DNA of 8,733 bases from an uncultured Deferribacteres bacterium (GCA_964014485.1 CAXHAT010000266.1:1-8733), one strand, 5' to 3'; shown: positions 1 to 8,733, counted from the stretch's first letter. Translations and numbers: made by a program. The notes: generated from the sequence alone by a model not told the origin.

Positions 1-2
1 GG

Positions 3-25
3 ATTCCCGCCTGCGCGGGAATGAC
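3..25. repeat. Short palindromic REP-like repeat ATTCCC-N8-GGGAAT(GAC), probably one arm of an element truncated by the window start
   Basis: ATTCCCGC-CTGC-GCGGGAAT at 3-22 is a perfect 8-bp stem hairpin followed by GAC. It fits the ATTCCC-N8-GGGAAT pattern of Neisseria dRS3 and similar dispersed palindromes in other bacteria. Confidence 0.75.
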
Positions 26-102
26 TTTGACGAGAGTTTCTACGGCGTCACGGCTGTCGCGTAACATCAGTTACTAAAACTGAATTCAAAGGCATGTGTG
101 AC

Positions 103-417: not shown

Positions 418-2361
418 ATGGCAAAACGCAAACAAAGTCAACCTGCAAAACCTGATAACGAAAACCCGCGCTCGAATGATCCGATAGAGCAAAAGGGCAA
501 AAAACGCGGATCGAAACCGCCTAAGGGGGCGCCGCCTCCAGGGCAAACTTTTGGAGGCGCAACCATGCCAGACCCAATCGTTTTTATTGATTTGAAGGAA
601 AACGACGCTCGCGCGCGGCAGCGTCTCGAAAACCGAAGGTTCGAGCTCGAGCGCCAAAAAGAAGAGCTCGGCGGAACGCTGCCGCCGCCTTTGCAGGCGG
701 AGCTGGACGATATCGTCGATTTGCTCGATAATCAAAAAATACCTGAACGGGACGACTTGTCCGCCGTTGTGGATCCCATGTTCACGGCGATTCGCGACAA
801 ACTGGGAGAAATTTGTCCGCCGCCGGTTGGCGACCATTACCAAGGGAAGCTGCCAAGTCAGTATCCGCCACCACCACCTATAAGTGTCCCGGTTACTACG
901 TCTGAAGCAACCTATAGCAATATTGGCGGACCGATTTTGACCGAGCCGGAAAAAACGCTGGCGGCGATCTACGGTTTGATGGAGCAGGATAATCTGACAA
1001 ATCCTAAGCTGTCTCGTTTTGTCCCGGCGATTTCGATTGCCATGGGCGAATACACAGCGAATGAAGCGCTTTTCGATGCTGTTTTAAACATAGTTATTCA
1101 GGAATCGCTCGTCGCGATTCCGTCTTCGGCAATGTCACTAGGTACCGTCGGCCCTCAGGGACAAGTCTCGATGCCTGAATATCACGTTCGGGCGGATCGT
1201 TGGGTTGGCGTGGCGCGTATCTTGCGTTCCCAAGGCGTCACGGTAAATGACCCGCTGCTCGCCTTGAAAACGCGCCAAGCGCTGGCCGGTCTGGACGGAA
1301 GCGGCTCCGGCGACGTTTCATCGGCGCTCGATATTCAGTTGCCCAATCTGGAAGAACACGCCGACGTTGAAATAGTGGCGGACAACCTGCGCGCCATGCA
1401 AGCGCTCTACTTTTCCGCCAGTCTGGAAGAGCTCAAGGTATTTCAGGTCGTCGACAAATTGGTCGAATTGTTCCATATCGGCATGCTGCCGCTGGGACGC
1501 GGCAAGGCGGGCGATATTCTTTACAATTATTGGAAGAAAAGCGTCGACCGCTTGACCGAACTCGAACGCCGCAATCTTTATGCGCGCGCTTTCGGCTTTC
1601 CGGGCGGCGACGCAGGGCAGGGCATGCCGAACCGCGAGTTCGACAATTTGTGGCTGCGTTTCATTTCCGCCGTCTCCAATTTCGTGCGTCAGATTTACGT
1701 GGATGATCTTCTGCGCTCAAACGTTCCCGTAGCGGTGAGCCAGGAGCAGGTGCGTAAGTCCGGTCGCGATCTCGCCGCGAATCTCTCCCTGCATGGCTAC
1801 GGTGTTGCATTTTTCGCCGCAGCGGAATTGCAGAAGCAGCTCAACGAAATCATCACACTGCTTTCCGACGACGAAGTTAAAACAGCTTACGGCGCTCGCG
1901 ACATGTGGCAGGTCGTCGATCAAGTGGCGGCGATGGAATTGGGCGGCGCCAGAAACAGCATCCGCTATCGCACGATGGCCAATGCCGGGGCGATTATCGT
2001 TCGCTGGTTGGAGAAAAAAGCCAACGTTTTGGCCGGTGCTTCCTTGGTCGACGTCATCGATCTGCGTCAGGTGCGCAACCCGATTTCGCGTCCGGAAGGC
2101 GTCAGACCGACGGAAGACCCGACGGATTATGATCTTTTCAATGCTTGCGAACAGTGGCTCGCGGTTAACGGCATCCCGGATCAGGAAGTCGAACAATATT
2201 CTCAGCCGACTGAATCGCCGTTGATTACTTCGCGCCCGATCCAGATTCCGGCAATGGCGCGCGACATGCTCGAAGGCGTCGGCATTCAGGCCGGAACCGG
2301 AAACGGCGGCTACAATAACCGAAACATGGAGACGCATCATGAACGAAAAGCCTATGTCTGA
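418..2361 (+). CDS. Hypothetical protein A1 (647 aa): Lys/Pro-rich disordered N-terminus, Pro-rich linker and a C-terminal predicted all-helical domain paralogous to A2
   Basis: Long ORF after an AT-rich leader (AAAGAGAAA at 404-412). The region from about 1330 to 2170 aligns with A2 (LRA..Y...LE, W....DR.T..ERR.....FG, LAANL, FAA, GA...W..V, G.....WL). Alternative in-frame start at ATG 565 with GGAGG at 553-557. No obvious signal peptide or transmembrane helix. Confidence 0.9.
   Translation: MAKRKQSQPAKPDNENPRSNDPIEQKGKKRGSKPPKGAPPPGQTFGGATMPDPIVFIDLKENDARARQRLENRRFELERQKEELGGTLPPPLQAELDDIVDLLDNQKIPERDDLSAVVDPMFTAIRDKLGEICPPPVGDHYQGKLPSQYPPPPPISVPVTTSEATYSNIGGPILTEPEKTLAAIYGLMEQDNLTNPKLSRFVPAISIAMGEYTANEALFDAVLNIVIQESLVAIPSSAMSLGTVGPQGQVSMPEYHVRADRWVGVARILRSQGVTVNDPLLALKTRQALAGLDGSGSGDVSSALDIQLPNLEEHADVEIVADNLRAMQALYFSASLEELKVFQVVDKLVELFHIGMLPLGRGKAGDILYNYWKKSVDRLTELERRNLYARAFGFPGGDAGQGMPNREFDNLWLRFISAVSNFVRQIYVDDLLRSNVPVAVSQEQVRKSGRDLAANLSLHGYGVAFFAAAELQKQLNEIITLLSDDEVKTAYGARDMWQVVDQVAAMELGGARNSIRYRTMANAGAIIVRWLEKKANVLAGASLVDVIDLRQVRNPISRPEGVRPTEDPTDYDLFNACEQWLAVNGIPDQEVEQYSQPTESPLITSRPIQIPAMARDMLEGVGIQAGTGNGGYNNRNMETHHERKAYV
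553..567 (+). promoter_or_regulatory. Strong Shine-Dalgarno sequence and in-frame ATG inside A1 (alternative start)
   Basis: GGAGG at 553-557, a 7-nt spacer, then ATG 565 (MPDPIV...), in the same frame as 418. Confidence 0.5.
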
Positions 2362-3379
2362 CGTCGTGGCCCGTCGGCTGCAAACGGCGGCGCAGCGATT
2401 GGGTTCAGCGGATCCGCTGCCTTACGTTAAGCCGCTGATAGACCGCACTTTTTACCTGCCGCAGGGCGACAGCAAATATGCTGAAAATACGCTGACGCCC
2501 GGCGCGGCGCCGCTTGAGCCGTCTTTTTCCGAAAATGAGCCGCACGATCTGCGTTTTACCGTTGAGCCGCTGGGGCCGGAAGCGTCTCCGGTCATGCGGC
2601 GGGACGAAGCGACGCGGGAAATGCGACGCCTGGTGTCGCCGGTTTTTGGCCAGGACGCCCTGCGTTGGTTCGACGGACGCAGCGAAGAGTGGCGCGGCAT
2701 GGGGTCGCGCTCCCGATTGCGCTACGGCGCCTTTTTCGGAACATCATATGATCGCGACGGCATGCACGCCTCCAAAGTCTACTACGAAATGTCGCCGAAT
2801 CAGATCGACGCCCTGCCCCCGGCGCTGGCGAGCCTAGCGCGACAAGCGATGCAAACCCTGCCTTCGTTAGTGCCGATGTTTACAACTATTGCCTGCCGCA
2901 GAAACAGCGGCGTCCAGCGAACCACTTTCTTACAGCTCGGCCCGCTGCGTTTGGGTGATCTCAAACCCTTGCTGCAGCGCATCGGTCTGGCGCACCAACT
3001 GCCCGGCCTGATGCAGATGATGGGTTTGGCGCTCGGCGGACGCTTTGAACTGCCGCCGGAAACGGTGGTGCTGGCGCTCGGCCAAACCACCGAAGGGCCG
3101 GAACTGAAATTGGAAGTCATGTTGGGGCGCATCCCGGACTTGCCGCGGACTTTTCTTGATCTCCTCGCTCTCGGTCTGGCCGAAAAGCCAAAGGAGCTCA
3201 ATGCACTGATGAGTTGGCTGCGCGCTTTTACGCCGGAATCAAGCGAGCTGCCGGGAAGGTTTTCCGTTTTAAGCGTACGGATTACGCCGAAATCGCCGGC
3301 GCGCGTGAGTCTTTATTTACGGCCGATTGAGTTTGAAATCACTGATCGTTTTGTTGAACGCAATGGCGTTCCCGGTTAA
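2339..3379 (+). CDS. Putative ABBA (PT-barrel) aromatic prenyltransferase-like protein, DMATS/tryptophan dimethylallyltransferase-related (346 aa)
   Basis: GGAG at 2328-2331 lies 7 nt before the ATG, and the gene overlaps A1 by 23 nt. Motifs LTPGAAPLEPS (E60), LRFTVEP (R72), ALRWF, SKVYY (K146/Y148) and VSLYLRP (Y326) occur in the order of the DMATS PxExS, VRYxxEP, LxWF, KxY and terminal Tyr motifs as I recall them from FgaPT2-type enzymes. The CDS is near-certain; the family call is moderate. Confidence 0.7.
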   Translation: MNEKPMSDVVARRLQTAAQRLGSADPLPYVKPLIDRTFYLPQGDSKYAENTLTPGAAPLEPSFSENEPHDLRFTVEPLGPEASPVMRRDEATREMRRLVSPVFGQDALRWFDGRSEEWRGMGSRSRLRYGAFFGTSYDRDGMHASKVYYEMSPNQIDALPPALASLARQAMQTLPSLVPMFTTIACRRNSGVQRTTFLQLGPLRLGDLKPLLQRIGLAHQLPGLMQMMGLALGGRFELPPETVVLALGQTTEGPELKLEVMLGRIPDLPRTFLDLLALGLAEKPKELNALMSWLRAFTPESSELPGRFSVLSVRITPKSPARVSLYLRPIEFEITDRFVERNGVPG

Positions 3380-3405
3380 GCTCGGTTTAAGAAAAGAGAA
3401 AACAA

Positions 3406-4716
3406 ATGAGGTCACTAACAAAAAATCGAACGGACGGCGACGCTAATGCGCTGACGCCCCGGCAGACGCTGGACGTGGCGCGCGGCAAAGTTCGCGACTT
3501 GCTGTTGAAAAGCGACGCCTTTCGCGCCTTGCCGCAAGATAAGCAGCGAGACATTGCGAAGAACACCGTCGAAGTCGTCAACTACCTTGCCGCGCCGGAG
3601 GGCGTTCCCGGCAACAAGCTGGCAACGGCGAAACAGTTCGTCGGCGCCGGGCAAAGCGACGATCCTTACGCCCTTGCTCTCGAAGATGAGCCTGGCGGGG
3701 GGCGTCGTTCGAGAAGAGACGGCGATTTTTCCGCATTGGCGGCGCGCGAGGGCGCGCAAGTGGCCGGTCTGCTTCTGGATCAGGTCAATTTTCCGGAATT
3801 TGTCAGCGGGCTGATTAACGGCGTGTTCCATTCCATTGTGCAATCATCAATGCAGCAGATGGAAGCCTATGGCCGACTGGTCGCGGACGTCGCCAAATCT
3901 CTCAACCAATTTCGCGATGAAAACGTGTCGATGAATCAAGGACGCGATCATCTCGTCGAACAGTTTTCCGATACTTTCATGCTCGACGTCGATACCGGCG
4001 ATAGTTTTGGCGGAGGGGGCGGCCCCAGAATCAGGCTGCGCGAAGACGTCGACGAAGAACAAGCATTGGCAAAAATCAACGACTTGCCTGTTGCCGGCGG
4101 CAAGTTGACCAGCCTCGATCTGGAAGACGACGAAGTGGAAGAAAAGCTGGTGCAGGCCGCGCGCACGCAATTGGCAACCAGCCGTCAGCAACTTTTGGCG
4201 ACGATGGTGATGATGGGCATCAACCGCATTATCGTGACCGAAGGACGGATTTCGGCAAAAGTAATGTACGATTTCCGTGCTCGCGATAATTTTCAGCGCA
4301 GCGCCACGAGCTTTGATTATGACAACCTGGGTACAAAGACGGTTCGTGAAGGCGAACATGAATACGAGCGCGAAGGAAGCAATTACACTTGGGAGAGAGA
4401 TGGAGACAAGTCGGAAGGCGAGTATCGAGGGCCAAGCTATTACTCAAAAGGGCAGTATAAAACAACACAGGAACCGCTGGTTAAACTCAAGAGCGCTACC
4501 GCTGAAGCGCAAGACGCGCAGTTGCAGTCCAAAGCGAGCCTTGCGGGCACCGTCGACGTGAATTTCAAAAGCGAGACCTTCCCGTTGGAAAAACTGGCCG
4601 ATTCGTTTCAGATCGCTCAAATACAGAATGCGGCGCAGCCCAAGAGGACGGCTCCGCAAGGCGGAAGCCGGGCGGCGTCAGAACCGCCAAGTTCGCCGTC
4701 AACTCCTGCTACCTAA
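3406..4716 (+). CDS. Hypothetical protein B1 (436 aa), family B paralog with helical core and long predicted beta-hairpin; possibly distantly DUF2589-like
   Basis: Starts 26 nt after the previous stop. Shares VNFPEFVSGLINGVFHSIVQSSMQQMEAYGRLVADVA, RQQLLATMVMMGINRIIVTEGRI and VDVNFKSETFPLEKL blocks with B2 and B3. Pro/Ser-rich tail. Confidence 0.9.
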   Translation: MRSLTKNRTDGDANALTPRQTLDVARGKVRDLLLKSDAFRALPQDKQRDIAKNTVEVVNYLAAPEGVPGNKLATAKQFVGAGQSDDPYALALEDEPGGGRRSRRDGDFSALAAREGAQVAGLLLDQVNFPEFVSGLINGVFHSIVQSSMQQMEAYGRLVADVAKSLNQFRDENVSMNQGRDHLVEQFSDTFMLDVDTGDSFGGGGGPRIRLREDVDEEQALAKINDLPVAGGKLTSLDLEDDEVEEKLVQAARTQLATSRQQLLATMVMMGINRIIVTEGRISAKVMYDFRARDNFQRSATSFDYDNLGTKTVREGEHEYEREGSNYTWERDGDKSEGEYRGPSYYSKGQYKTTQEPLVKLKSATAEAQDAQLQSKASLAGTVDVNFKSETFPLEKLADSFQIAQIQNAAQPKRTAPQGGSRAASEPPSSPSTPAT

Positions 4717-4741
4717 GTGAGTATGCGAAGGATATTGAAAT

Positions 4742-5944
4742 ATGAAAAACCAAAACGGCAAGCCGGCTGCCTGGGCGGATGATCAAACCCTGAGCGCCGT
4801 ACGTCCGGAAGTTCGTAAAATTTTGCAAGCTTCGCCAGGGTTTCAGCAGCTTTCGGAGCCGGAGAAAAAAGAGTTGGCTTCAAAAATGGTGAAGGTGGCT
4901 TCGTACATGTCCAATCCGGACGGCTTGGCGGCGCAGGAGCTTTCCCCGGAAGGCGGCGTTCTCGCCCACGCCCAGGAAGACGATCCGGTTGAAGCGACGA
5001 AAAGACGGTTGAGCCAAGCGCCGGGCGTTGTTGGAGAAGATTTCGAAGCGGGGGCGGTCAAGCAAGGCGTCAAGCAGTTTGGCGCGCTGGTGCAAAAGGT
5101 TGATTTTCCGAAATTCGTCGGCGGACTAATAGAGAATGTGTTCCAGGCGATTGTGGATTCCTCGATCAAACAGATGCGCGCTTACGGCGAGTTGCTGGCC
5201 AATGTGGCGAAAACGGTCGACCAGTTTGCGCAAGATAATATCACGGAAAATAATGCGCGCGATTGGATGGCCGAACGCTTTCCGGACGCTTTGGGCGTCG
5301 AAACGGAAGACATGGGTTTTGGATTTGCCGAAGGAGACGAGGAAGAAGCGCCTGGGCCGCAGCCCAAAATCGTAGCCACAGGAGAGGAGCCGGAAGAAGA
5401 CTTAAAGCGCATTTCGGAGGAATTGGGGCTGGAAAAACCCGTTACCGACATTTCCGATCCGAACGAAGAACTGCGTCTCGTCTTGGGAGCCCGCTTGCAG
5501 ATTGCCCGTGCGCGTCAACAGTTGCTCTCCTCGATGGTTATTTTGGGCATTAACCGCATCGTCGTTACCGACGGTCTTATTCATGCCAAAGTTGTTTTCG
5601 ACATGCGCGCCCGCGATACGGCCAGGCGTGTGGCAAAAGCTTCGATGCATGACAGAGAATCGCAATCGCACAAGATTTCGACGCGCGCCGAATACGGCAG
5701 TTGGTTGTCTCCGGTTTCCGCCAGCGTGGGGACTGAGCATGCTATGGAGCATGTCGCAACTGTTGAATCATCGGTCGATGATACGTCCGAATCGAAAGCG
5801 GAAGTGAAAGCCAAGCTCACCGGCGAAGTGCGGGTCAATTTTAAGAGCGACCACTTCCCGATGGAGAAGCTGGCTAGCCCGGAAATGATCGCCGCCATCC
5901 AAGGTAACGCCGAGCCGCCGAAGAAAATAGTCGAAGGCGCCTGA
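4742..5944 (+). CDS. Hypothetical protein B2 (400 aa), family B paralog
   Basis: AAGGA at 4728-4732 and a 25-nt gap after B1. Conserved blocks VDFPKFVGGLIENVFQAIVDSSIKQMRAYGELLANVA, RQQLLSSMVILGINRIVVTDGLI and VRVNFKSDHFPMEKL. Confidence 0.9.
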   Translation: MKNQNGKPAAWADDQTLSAVRPEVRKILQASPGFQQLSEPEKKELASKMVKVASYMSNPDGLAAQELSPEGGVLAHAQEDDPVEATKRRLSQAPGVVGEDFEAGAVKQGVKQFGALVQKVDFPKFVGGLIENVFQAIVDSSIKQMRAYGELLANVAKTVDQFAQDNITENNARDWMAERFPDALGVETEDMGFGFAEGDEEEAPGPQPKIVATGEEPEEDLKRISEELGLEKPVTDISDPNEELRLVLGARLQIARARQQLLSSMVILGINRIVVTDGLIHAKVVFDMRARDTARRVAKASMHDRESQSHKISTRAEYGSWLSPVSASVGTEHAMEHVATVESSVDDTSESKAEVKAKLTGEVRVNFKSDHFPMEKLASPEMIAAIQGNAEPPKKIVEGA

Positions 5945-6000
5945 CGCCAATGGCACTAATTTTTTGTATTTCTGAGTTTAAAATGTTGGTTTCAGAAAAG

Positions 6001-6092
6001 ACACGCTAAAGCGTGGACTACGAACGATGACGCTCGCTTCTACCCTGAGTGTTGGGCATGCACTGTCGTTTGTAGTCCATGCTTTAGCATGT
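6001..6092. repeat. Inverted pair of GTAG-family REP elements (REPIN/BIME-like doublet)
   Basis: 6001-6027 and 6066-6092 are 27-bp inverted copies with 3 mismatches. Each reads GTAG-TC followed by a 6-bp-stem hairpin (CACGCT-TT-AGCGTG on the minus strand, CATGCT-TT-AGCATG on the plus strand). A T7 run occupies 6092-6098. Confidence 0.75.
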
Positions 6093-6133
6093 TTTTTTCA
6101 AAACCGCTGTTTTGGACAAAATTTAAAATCCAA

Positions 6134-7108
6134 ATGACAACGCCCAAGTCACAAATAAATTCCAATGACCAAACTATAGAGCAACGCCTGAGCGGCTTTT
6201 CTGAAATCGACTTTGCGTTCCGGACGGACGACCTCGACGCGGCGCTGGCGCTTGGCTGGCGAATGTTAGAAGCGTCGGAGCGGTTCGCGGGTCAGTTTGC
6301 TCTGCCGGACGTCGGCTTGCCCGAACTGCCGCCGGTTGTGGGAGGCGAGTTTGATCAGTCCCAACTGCGCGCCGTCGCGCCGTTCTACCTGGCTTCCGAA
6401 TTGGAGGCCGTTCGATTGATACCGGCGGTTGAGACGTTGGCGGGGTTGTTCATAAGCGGCGGATTGCGTGCGCAGCTTGGTTCGGCGGGATCAATGATTG
6501 GGCGGTTTTGGCGGGCGCGACGAGATCGTTTTACGAAGGAAGAGAGACGGGCGTTTTTCTCGCAGGTTTTTGGCGCCAATCACGGCCCCGTCCTGGCCGC
6601 TCGCGGCGGGCGCAACGAGAAGTTCGAAATCTTGATGATCGATTTTGCCGAAGCGCTTTATCAGTTCAGTCAATATGCTGGGTATGTCGGACGCACGCCG
6701 CCGCAAACGCACCTTTTTCTCGCTGCGAAAAAGCTTGCCGCCAATCTAACGCGGTACGGCGGCGGCGTGGTCGGCTTTGCGGCGCGCGATATTCTCGAAA
6801 CCGTCAGCAAGGCGTTGGATATTCTGAAACAGCCGACGGTGCAGCGCGCCGTCGGAGCCGTTTCCGTTTGGGACGCGGTGCGAAGAATCAATCAACGCTA
6901 TCTCGGCGAGACCGTCGAAATCGCCAACCATGTGAGACGAGCCAAATCAGGCGTGACGATGCTGGCCTGGCTGGCTGAACATTTGCCGGAGTTGGGCACG
7001 GGCAGATCGGTTGACTTTTCCTCCGAAAACAACGTCGTCTCCGCCGCGACGACCTGGCTGCAGGCGACATTGTCGATGGCTGAGCAAGCCTTCGCCCCGC
7101 AATTTTGA
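6134..7108 (+). CDS. Hypothetical protein A2 (about 324 aa), stand-alone paralog of the A1 C-terminal domain; start codon uncertain
   Basis: The ORF-track start at 6089 lies inside the REP hairpin, so ATG 6134 or a later codon is more plausible. There is a gapless alignment of about 90 aa to A1 (DVGLPELPP...ERRAFFSQVFG vs DIQLPNLEE...ERRNLYARAFG), plus LAANLTRYGGGVVGFAA vs LAANLSLHGYGVAFFAA. Confidence 0.85.
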   Translation: MTTPKSQINSNDQTIEQRLSGFSEIDFAFRTDDLDAALALGWRMLEASERFAGQFALPDVGLPELPPVVGGEFDQSQLRAVAPFYLASELEAVRLIPAVETLAGLFISGGLRAQLGSAGSMIGRFWRARRDRFTKEERRAFFSQVFGANHGPVLAARGGRNEKFEILMIDFAEALYQFSQYAGYVGRTPPQTHLFLAAKKLAANLTRYGGGVVGFAARDILETVSKALDILKQPTVQRAVGAVSVWDAVRRINQRYLGETVEIANHVRRAKSGVTMLAWLAEHLPELGTGRSVDFSSENNVVSAATTWLQATLSMAEQAFAPQF

Positions 7109-7115
7109 GGCTTTG

Positions 7116-8733
7116 ATGATGAACGATGCGGCAACAAACTCGACGTCCGTTCCGCCCGCAGGGCAACCCGAAGTCGTTCGCGATCCTCTGCCGCTTGTCC
7201 GACAAACCGTGCGTTCGCTGCTTTTGTCGAGTCCCGCTTTTCGCGAGCTTGACGATGAGCAGAAAAAGCAGATGGCCGCGGCGATGGTTAAGGTTTGCCA
7301 CGCCGCCGCCTCAATGGTTCGCGAGGAAATGCAGAGCGACGAGCAAGTCGCCGGCGCGCTTTCGGCGGAGCGGGAAAACGGAGCTTTTGCTAATGACCTC
7401 CGGGAGGACGCTCCCGCCGCGCCATTAGCGACGACCCAGGGCTTTGGCGACGCCGCGAATCGTGTTGCGGGAACGACGCGGAGCATTCTGAACGCCGTTT
7501 CTTTTCCCCGATTCGTCACCGAACTCATCAACGGCGTTTTTAAGGCCATTGTCGATTCCAGCCAGCAGCAAATGCACGGTTATGTTGAGTTATTGAATAA
7601 CGTTGCCGCTTCGCTAGACGGATTTGCCGGCGCCAATTACGGCCCGGATCGCGCGCGCCAATGGCTGGCGGAACGCTACCCCGGCTCATTCGAAATCATC
7701 GGTGAAGTTTTAGAAGGCGGTTCAAGGAAAGATCCAAACGACGATTGGGAGACTGACGAGGATGAGAGCGGGGGAGAATTGACTTTAAGATTAAGGCCGG
7801 GCGCCTCTCCTCCTCCGCCGGAAACTCTGCGGGTGGATTTGGGTTTGGGACAAAACGAAACAATCCCCACGGGCGATCCTGAGAGAACACTGGTTCCCTT
7901 GGTTAGGCGCGCATTGGCGCGGCAACGTCAGCAAATGTTGGCAACGATGGTGATGATGGGCATGCAGCGTATTGTCATTGACGCCGGACGCATTACCGCT
8001 TCGATGCGGTTTCACATCGATACGCGCAGCGCTCTCAACGAAGACAAGGCCAGTCGGTTCGATTTTCAACATCAATCCAGCGGTGCAGCGAGTTATGGCG
8101 GCGGGCCTTGGGGGGTAAGCGCTTCGATGACAAATACAATCGGCTATGTCAACACACAGCGAACGCAAACCACTGAGGAGTTGAACACAGAACTCGATTT
8201 GAATTCGTCGGTGGAGTTGAATTTCCGGACGGATTACTTGCCGCTAGACCGCATGACCGGCGATGATCGCGCCAAACTCATCCGGGCGAACTCTCTCAAT
8301 CCGGAAACGGAAGCCCGCCTCGCTTCGGAGGCGGCGAGAGAACGTCAGTCGAGACGAGACAATGCCGCAACGCGTGAAGCCTCCAGAAGAACCCAAATCG
8401 ATACTGATACCAGACCCCGCCAAACGCCGCGAGCCACTCCAGGGGCTCCCGGAACTGTTGAACACGCTGAACGGGCGCGGCGGGAAGCGCAAACGCGCGA
8501 GCGACAAAGCGGTTCCGGCGGCCAACCGTCGACCGGCGGGACTGGCGGGGACCAATCGGGAAGCGCTCGTCCGTCGACCGGCGGAACTGGCGGCGGCCAA
8601 TCAGGAAGCGCTCGTCCGTCGACCGGCGGAACTGGCGGGAGCCAATCGGGAAGTGCTCGCCCGACGACCGGCGGAACTGGCGGAACTGGCGGCGGCCAAT
8701 CAGGAAGCGCTCGTCCGTCGACCGGCGGAACTG
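7116..8733 (+). CDS. Hypothetical protein B3 (more than 539 aa, 3' partial), family B paralog with an Arg/Glu-rich extension and a Gly/Ser/Thr tandem-repeat tail
   Basis: Not in the ORF track. Hand translation from ATG 7116/7119 (GAGG at 7107-7110) shows no stop to the window end: MMNDAATNSTSVPP...VRSLLLSSPAFRELDDEQKKQMAAAMVKV...VSFPRFVTELINGVFKAIVDSSQQQMHGYVELLNNVA...RQQMLATMVMMGMQRIVIDAGRI...VELNFRTDYLPLDRM. Confidence 0.92.
   Translation, partial: MMNDAATNSTSVPPAGQPEVVRDPLPLVRQTVRSLLLSSPAFRELDDEQKKQMAAAMVKVCHAAASMVREEMQSDEQVAGALSAERENGAFANDLREDAPAAPLATTQGFGDAANRVAGTTRSILNAVSFPRFVTELINGVFKAIVDSSQQQMHGYVELLNNVAASLDGFAGANYGPDRARQWLAERYPGSFEIIGEVLEGGSRKDPNDDWETDEDESGGELTLRLRPGASPPPPETLRVDLGLGQNETIPTGDPERTLVPLVRRALARQRQQMLATMVMMGMQRIVIDAGRITASMRFHIDTRSALNEDKASRFDFQHQSSGAASYGGGPWGVSASMTNTIGYVNTQRTQTTEELNTELDLNSSVELNFRTDYLPLDRMTGDDRAKLIRANSLNPETEARLASEAARERQSRRDNAATREASRRTQIDTDTRPRQTPRATPGAPGTVEHAERARREAQTRERQSGSGGQPSTGGTGGDQSGSARPSTGGTGGGQSGSARPSTGGTGGSQSGSARPTTGGTGGTGGGQSGSARPSTGGT
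8526..8733 (+). repeat. Coding tandem repeat with a 45-bp unit encoding PSTGGTGG(D/G/S)QSGSAR; at least 4.4 copies, truncated by the window end
   Basis: Units start at 8526, 8571, 8616, 8661 and 8715. The fourth unit is 54 bp because of an extra GGCGGAACT (Gly-Gly-Thr). All units are in frame with B3. Confidence 0.95.

Follow-up and report, generated by a model that had tools for sequence, protein, structure and literature searches.

The protease-activated pore former Trypco1/2, also named Pepco (Kaur et al. 2020, PMC7159879), is an experimentally demonstrated β-barrel pore, homo-oligomeric, formed by a protein of ~117 amino acids (aa) and paired with one sensor-fused protease (Evans et al. 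2025, bioRxiv 10.1101/2025.11.14.688446). Here we describe a conserved cassette of ~13 genes, the 3' half of which occupies the whole of an 8,733-nucleotide (nt) stretch of DNA (the window; GCA_964014485.1, CAXHAT010000266.1:1-8733) from an uncultured Deferribacteres bacterium. The cassette encodes three protein families, B (four paralogs of 400-540 aa), A (two paralogs) and PT (one protein with a predicted prenyltransferase fold), together with an S8 peptidase and a giant protein that carries cell wall hydrolase and further protease domains. The likeness to Pepco is one of architecture only: the B proteins too are non-enzymatic, with a predicted basal helix, an amphipathic hairpin (one hydrophobic and one charged face) and a disordered C-terminal tail, and they too are encoded beside serine and cysteine proteases (S8 in 39/39 loci; trypsin and C70 domains within the giant protein). 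However, where Pepco is small and homo-oligomeric the cassette has four large B paralogs, and where Pepco is paired with a single sensor-fused protease the B proteins are accompanied by a prenyltransferase, the two A proteins and a giant wall hydrolase, without any sensor NTPase. Neither sequence nor profile comparison detects a similarity of the B proteins to Trypco2.

Bacterial gasdermin-protease systems offer a further analogy, in that the B proteins are proposed to be latent pore formers released by a neighbouring protease; gasdermins are also palmitoylated, a lipid modification of a pore former that the prenylation proposed below would parallel. The cassette differs from them in lacking any sequence match to gasdermin (PADLOC), in its predicted architecture and in being a far larger, multi-paralog unit. 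Phage holin-endolysin cassettes likewise place a signal-less peptidoglycan hydrolase (Amidase_2, M15-like or NlpC/P60-like; here also Extensin-like_C and Peptidase_C92) beside possible membrane openers, but our cassette contains no small transmembrane holin, has no phage context, comprises 13 genes rather than 2-4 and includes extra protease and prenyltransferase parts. The giant protein recalls the polymorphic toxin systems (see Zhang et al. 2012, PMC3482391) in that its N-terminal domain is constant, its enzymatic domains are swappable and its papain-like protease, likewise constant, could free them; unlike in those toxins, the variable domains sit in mid-protein rather than at the C-terminus, neither a recognisable secretion-system domain nor a neighbouring immunity gene was identified, and A, B and PT lie outside any described trafficking route. 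As the preliminary description of the window had supposed, no named system of this composition was matched in Pfam, NCBIfam, PADLOC, PHROGs, the PDB or the literature, and our literature searches, within the collection of papers that they covered, returned no published description of the cassette. As no described match was found, and the A and B families could be assigned to none of the closest known systems, we regard the cassette as new in composition.

A genome-collection scan recovered 52 loci from at least 10 phyla. BLAST comparison of these, open reading frame (ORF) by ORF, gave one rigid order, giant protein-(U400)-B4-s81-T298-S8-A1-PT-B1-B2-A2-B3, in which s81 is an 81-aa protein and U400 is variably present, and in 52/52 loci all matched cassette genes are on one strand; the full order begins further upstream with a PspF-like sigma-54 activator, itself variably present, and a small protein. 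Presence was counted with the loci that had enough flank as denominator. By this count B4 was present in 36/36 loci, T298 in 38/38 and S8 in all 39; s81, a small ORF close to the 70-aa calling limit, was found in 31/38, and the giant protein in 31/36, four of the five misses carrying U400, which pushes the giant protein outside the flank. The genes of the window are equally constant (counts listed below), so that the co-occurrence of A, PT and B across genomes, which the preliminary description had named as a test, is near-perfect. Because the genes 3' of B3 are not conserved (16 loci), the cassette ends with B3. What the window holds is the 3' half of a single conserved cassette of ~13 genes that moves horizontally; the six genes that had been proposed as a candidate system in one operon are real and form its distal half. 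The features of the window are as follows.

1..75, no strand assigned: high-copy palindromic element resembling repetitive extragenic palindromic (REP) sequences, 189-275 other genomic copies (blastn-short)
418..2361, plus strand: A1, 647 aa, without known family; orthologs in 42/42 loci
2339..3379, plus strand: PT, 346 aa, predicted ABBA (PT-barrel) fold of the DMATS or indole prenyltransferase type (AlphaFold2, AF2, with Foldseek); orthologs in 45/45 loci
3406..4716, plus strand: B1, 436 aa, B-family paralog; orthologs in 46/46 loci
4742..5944, plus strand: B2, 400 aa, the most conserved B paralog, represented by an AF2 model and 97-sequence alignment columns
5945..6088, no strand assigned: B2-A2 intergenic gap with two short REP-like elements, an imperfect inverted pair, 9 and 21 other copies
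6089..7108, plus strand: A2, paralog of the A1 core, 339 aa (or 324 aa from 6134); orthologs in 52/52 loci
7116..8733, plus strand: B3, at least 539 aa, open at the 3' end, B-family paralog and last cassette gene; orthologs in 46/47 loci, the sole miss being a contig that ends too early
8526..8733, plus strand: tandem 45-nt repeats (15 residues, Gly/Thr/Ser-rich) in the B3 tail, continuing on contig C416

The upstream half of the cassette in the window's genome lies on another contig, C99, which encodes in turn the activator, a 91-aa protein, a giant protein of 1,351 aa, U400, B4, s81, T298 and S8. The first ~60 bases of C99 (L020:1-60) resemble what we take to be a Nextera transposase adapter, which would represent adapter contamination at the assembly break where C99 should join the window. 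The same order, with 13 genes, is annotated on the Burkholderia pyrrocinia plasmid NZ_CP091309.1, where the NCBI labels read sigma-54 regulator, DUF3467 protein, N-acetylmuramoyl-L-alanine amidase, three hypothetical proteins, S8 peptidase and six hypothetical proteins. Just 3' of that plasmid cassette (20059-25334) are genes for a 1,151-aa protein with an adenylate/guanylate cyclase domain, a patatin-like phospholipase and a hypothetical protein; these may constitute a separate conflict module, hinting at a defence-island setting. A Tolypothrix plasmid carries a reduced variant without PT, consisting of an alpha/beta hydrolase, an S8 peptidase, a peptidoglycan-binding protein, one A-like and one B-like protein, three unknowns and a T298-like protein, and here too the A gene is 5' of the B gene. 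This reduced variant indicates that S8, A, B, T298 and a wall-targeting protein form the older core.

Distribution of the cassette is patchy, at ~3-10% of sampled genomes: it occurs in 4/167 genomes of the window's phylum (a tally that takes in the window genome, G000, and the unpublished genome G162, which no other result here draws on), in 4/151 genomes of the family of Sphingomonas deserti and in 9/94 Burkholderia species genomes. A quick IQ-TREE phylogeny of 51 B2 sequences intermixes 10 phyla, with Amycolatopsis and Cellulomonas, for example, nested within the Sphingomonadales (SH-aLRT 97); on this sequence evidence the cassette has passed almost unchanged between at least 10 bacterial phyla, spread by horizontal gene transfer. 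B2 had no match in 50,697 phage records and four matches in plasmid records. Carriers include cultivable Sphingomonas, Burkholderia, Roseobacter, Phenylobacterium, Amycolatopsis and Cellulomonas.

It is the upstream half, with its proteases, giant peptidoglycan hydrolase, fourth B paralog, Trypco2-like protein and sigma-54 activator, that points to a mechanism. The giant protein combines a conserved ~130-residue N-terminal domain, a variable middle and a constant AvrRpt2-type Peptidase_C70. In the window's genome it contains Extensin-like_C, Trypsin_2 and two Peptidase_C70 stretches (E 6.5e-51); elsewhere the middle consists of trypsin and Peptidase_C92 (genome G163), Amidase_2 (Sphingomonas and Amycolatopsis), Amidase_2 with C92 (Burkholderia) or DUF3238 (Roseobacter), a swapping of hydrolases that fits either adaptation to the wall of a new host after transfer or diversification against targets. 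The S8 protein (Peptidase_S8, E 1e-33) is nearest to the mycosins of type VII secretion, but it falls under the mycosin equivalog cut-off (TIGR03921, 172.2 bits versus 278.75) and none of the annotated cassette genes resembles EccC or EccD; it is also under the PatA/PatG family cut-off (E 9.5e-26, 90.7 bits versus 421). In all, each cassette carries three to four protease domains. T298 ends in a TIG-like domain, and its N-terminal domain gave weak matches to Trypco2 (PF19631) in 24/27 orthologs (best E 0.0013), the copy in the window's genome scoring 12.2 bits against a cut-off of 24.2. Against PADLOC-DB v2 the upstream genes gave only generic subtilase, trypsin and RtcR/PspF-type AAA matches.

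The activator has a Sigma54_activat AAA+ domain (PF00158, E 2e-65) and a weak HTH_8, without a receiver or sensor domain, as in PspF. It is also found upstream in the Sphingomonas deserti and Burkholderia loci and is absent from those of Roseobacter and Amycolatopsis. Promoter-like sites of the form TGG-N9-TTGC follow the activator in three genomes and a version with one mismatch does so in the window genome, where rpoN is encoded; there is no sigma-54 promoter within the window. The slot between activator and giant protein is occupied by DUF3467 in Proteobacteria (L085/L088/L093) and, in the window's genome and its order-level relatives, by an unrelated protein of 91-109 aa with no BLAST match. 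U400 (L020:4267-5469), for which no family match was found, is mostly 400 aa long and separates B4 from the giant protein in those versions of the cassette that are Bacteroidota-like, cyanobacterial or acidobacterial; genome G163 has at this position a 156-aa protein with a hydrophobic start (L019:13027-13497), and the proteobacterial and actinobacterial versions lack the extra gene. The cassette proteins are soluble, acidic and nearly cysteine-free, and a crude Kyte-Doolittle scan (19-residue windows, maximum 1.67) found no signal peptide or transmembrane helix in any of the 14 tested.

The window's genome encodes exactly four B paralogs. B1 and B3 align with B2 over their full length at 38% and 31% identity (E 6.6e-59 and 3.9e-41), and A1 with A2 at 28%, in keeping with an early view of these genes as diverged but intact paralogs. 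Within a set of 5.8 billion proteins B2 has 1,945 homologs, the best 120 of which are 63-74% identical and include Cyanobacteria, Acidobacteria, Chloroflexi and Gemmatimonadetes among their sources; the B profile recovers 1,954 clusters (50% identity), with 476 reaching E<=1e-30. The AF2 model of B2 (97 sequences; predicted local distance difference test score, pLDDT, 70.6; predicted template modelling score, pTM, 0.48) starts with helices at the N-terminus, continues with long helices (104-179, 240-269) and has a single long hairpin (278-295 / 350-367) with a predicted disordered insert at its tip; there is also a hydrophobic helix end at residues 261-270. The B family had been characterised as β-hairpin proteins from the sequence, and the model does contain the hairpin, but two thirds of B2 is helical. 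Across 97 family members both hairpin strands alternate hydrophobic with polar or charged columns, an amphipathicity that is as expected of a barrel-forming stem. The hairpin-tip inserts carry an invariant Trp in B2 (W321) and B3 (W332) and a conserved Tyr in B1, whose insert is long, Tyr-rich and charged. Tails following the hairpin are disordered and variable in length and come after a conserved I-x-x-I-Q-G-N-x-x-P motif; that of B1 is Pro/Ser-rich and that of B3 is long.

No Pfam, NCBIfam, PADLOC or PHROG family matched the B proteins above cut-off, and PDB sequence profiles gave nothing significant for them. Structural comparison of the whole B2 chain with viral models (BFVD) was not significant (best E 0.022). 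Sub-threshold fold matches of B2 are enriched in ring proteins that build a barrel by hairpins, namely FliF, anthrax PA, the iota Ib and CDTb pores and a phi29-type lower collar; this can serve as a lead only. Two domain assignments were rejected: DUF6683, weakly matched at the N-terminus in 5/97 members and not mentioned in what a literature search returned, and DUF2589, proposed for B2 by the ESM Atlas with a score of 0.78, under trust level, where the other matches were unnamed clusters. Homology among B, T298 and s81 was also considered and ruled out by hhalign and hmmsearch.

For PT, an AF2 model built on a 46-sequence alignment (pLDDT 92.5) has ten strands arranged as five hairpins, with two helices after each. 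Foldseek returned 124 PDB matches at E<=0.001 (best E 4e-12, template modelling (TM) score 0.70), the top structures being CymD 6os3, PriB 5jxm, IptA 7w8u and DMATS1 8db0, with FgaPT2 3i4z also matched (E 4e-12 to 1e-8, TM 0.63-0.72). On the predicted model PT has the DMATS-type ABBA prenyltransferase fold, which upholds the assignment in the preliminary description, at an identity of just 11-17% to the DMATS-type matches; PDB sequence profiles gave nothing significant. Enzymes of this type have inside the barrel a ring of Arg, Lys and Tyr that binds diphosphate and a catalytic Glu. In PT, residues E60, R72, K146, Y148, R194, R322, Y326 and R328 are at least 90% conserved and lie on barrel strands, a pattern that looks compatible with diphosphate binding, and we presume that they correspond to residues of FgaPT2. 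Unlike DMATS enzymes, PT is encoded in a protease and pore-like cassette and not in a secondary-metabolite cluster, and it probably acts on a protein, a kind of substrate that would be unusual with this fold.

The A proteins, putatively helical according to the preliminary description, matched no family in Pfam, NCBIfam, PADLOC or PHROGs, and nothing significant among PDB sequence profiles. A1 has a low-complexity N-terminus rich in Lys and Pro, and the similarity of its residues 305-546 to A2 extends over 244 residues (E 4e-23). A2 had no usable match in the ESM Atlas, where its model is poor (pLDDT 0.36). Profile tests found no homology among the A, B and PT families.

The combination, within one cassette, of proteases, proteins with helices, an amphipathic hairpin and disordered tails, and a wall hydrolase lacking a signal is the reason that we favour, tentatively and with a probability of roughly 0.4, a protease-gated, hetero-oligomeric B pore or translocon, prenylated by PT and serving the wall-degrading giant protein in self-lysis or attack. 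By analogy with the systems above, the four B paralogs, each with a helical body and an amphipathic hairpin of ~18 residues per strand, would assemble into a hetero-oligomeric β-barrel in the cytoplasmic membrane. Until then they would be kept latent by the A proteins, each of which is encoded just 5' of B genes, and/or by their disordered tails and hairpin-tip inserts. S8, trypsin and C70 would release the latent B proteins, following Pepco and gasdermin logic, and PT would prenylate a B or A protein at a conserved aromatic residue (candidates are W321 of B2, W332 of B3 and the conserved Tyr of B1), so promoting membrane insertion. Through the pore the signal-less giant hydrolase would gain access to the cell wall in holin-endolysin fashion, and the outcome would be either that the producer lyses, in programmed death or abortive infection (for example on phage attack), or that a wall-degrading weapon is released against its neighbours. 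The preliminary reading of the window, in which co-assembled B proteins would form a pore, tube or filament, with the A proteins as scaffold, chaperone or cap and PT modifying or binding them, is partly supported, by the co-occurrence of the families, the PT-barrel fold, the lack of a named match and the amphipathic hairpin. A bolder version, which we regard as doubtful, would make the cassette a new class of envelope-independent export or lysis machine, in which a four-paralog barrel, checked by A proteins and proteases and armed by PT, delivers a giant hydrolase to the wall and moves between monoderm and diderm phyla.

Several observations weigh against a B pore. The hydrophobic face of the hairpin is Ala-rich (A282, A290, A294, A355, A357) and suits packing of sheet on sheet or sheet on helix at least as well as it does a lipid-facing barrel; the B2 model is of moderate confidence, with the scores given above, and as a whole chain has no significant structural match (Foldseek against the PDB, best E 0.11; VIA, best Z 4.8, repeat 3.8). 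Trypco families were detected in 0/97 B sequences at E<=0.01, and hhalign gives a probability of 0.4% for B against the Trypco2-like T298. PT scores under the DMATS family cut-offs (Trp_DMAT, PF11991, 16.3 bits versus 25; TIGR03429, 12.9 versus 163.85). The cassette has no sensor NTPase of the kind typical of defence systems, the six window proteins, A, B and PT, matched 0 families in PADLOC-DB v2 at E<=1, and the conservation of B2 and PT (55-74% identity across phyla) is unusually high for a conflict system. Finally, in the source genome the join of C99 to the window is drawn from synteny in other genomes rather than from the assembly.

Some of the same facts would suit A and B proteins that make up a structure without lytic function (a tube, filament, cage or scaffold, cytoplasmic or released), with hairpins forming inter-subunit sheets and with the proteases and PT as maturation enzymes. 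The soluble, acidic, nearly cysteine-free proteins, the Ala-rich hairpin face, several diverged paralogs in fixed order with very highly conserved B2 and PT, and the phage collar and MS-ring proteins among the weak B2 fold matches all favour such an assembly; yet it leaves unexplained the constant partnership with a giant peptidoglycan hydrolase and protease, the Trypco2-like gene and a patchy distribution driven by horizontal transfer, and we consider it unlikely.

Were there no B pore, the giant wall hydrolase might be the sole effector of a protease-signalling or regulatory cascade in which A and B are substrates, adaptors or inhibitors. The number of protease domains, the long disordered inserts and tails of B, and an activator that, being sensor-less, might be regulated in trans by one of the cassette proteins are all in line with this idea, which we nevertheless rate as rather improbable: a cytoplasmic hydrolase without a signal would still need a route to the wall, and a hairpin kept strictly amphipathic in 97 sequences would be superfluous in a mere substrate. 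A pathway for a ribosomally synthesised and post-translationally modified peptide (RiPP) or other natural product, with the ABBA prenyltransferase and S8 maturing a peptide (compare cyanobactin PatA/PatG and PatF-type enzymes) and A and B as scaffolds or precursors, would account for the DMATS fold of PT and for the sub-threshold PatA/PatG match of S8. It is, however, very hard to reconcile with the remaining gene content, in which a short precursor with a hypervariable core is lacking, as are a YcaO, a cyclase and an exporter, while the B proteins are ~400 aa and conserved over their full length, wall hydrolases are always in the cassette and the Tolypothrix variant dispenses with PT altogether.

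Within the window, all six ORFs are on the plus strand in the order A1-PT-B1-B2-A2-B3, so that ORF calls and profile tests bear out the arrangement of six co-directional genes from three families, A-PT-B-B-A-B, on which the preliminary description was built. The junctions are, in order, -23, 26, 25, 144 and 7 nt, the four short ones being exactly those first reported; the larger gap, which had been said to be filled by REPs, can indeed be called REP-like because its two short elements recur elsewhere in the genome in the numbers listed. The source genome amounts to 8.4 Mb in 465 contigs, of which the window is the entire contig C266, and NCBI annotates all of the window's genes as 'hypothetical protein'. 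The high-copy element at 1-75 probably explains why the assembly breaks upstream of A1. A second repeat element, of ~30 copies, lies at 235-330, just 5' of A1; as the S8-A1 spacer is only ~50 nt in other genomes, both elements are insertions into the interior of the operon. At the other end the 45-nt tandem repeats of B3 break the assembly, and contig C416 carries the remainder, on which the frame closes. For A2, the start at 6134 is more likely than that at 6089, the database gene call and the ortholog alignment both agreeing on it. B3 has an alternative TTG start (7011-7115) that would add 35 residues and overlap A2; ortholog alignments prefer the ATG at 7116. For the source, three DNA metagenome runs from one study and no RNA sequencing runs are listed.

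Even if the proposed mechanism is wrong, a 13-gene unit whose order stays rigid from phylum to phylum is a well-defined unknown that can be tested directly. The B family comprises ~1,950 clusters at 50% identity and the cassette is present in at least 10 phyla, yet all of its core genes carry the label hypothetical. If the mechanism is right, the cassette would be a large elaboration of the logic of protease-gated pore formers. It would then supply a multi-paralog pore former of a fold without a match in the PDB, possibly the first DMATS-fold enzyme that modifies proteins in a system of cell death or attack, and an exit route by which signal-less wall hydrolases could reach their substrate without a holin or a classical secretion system.

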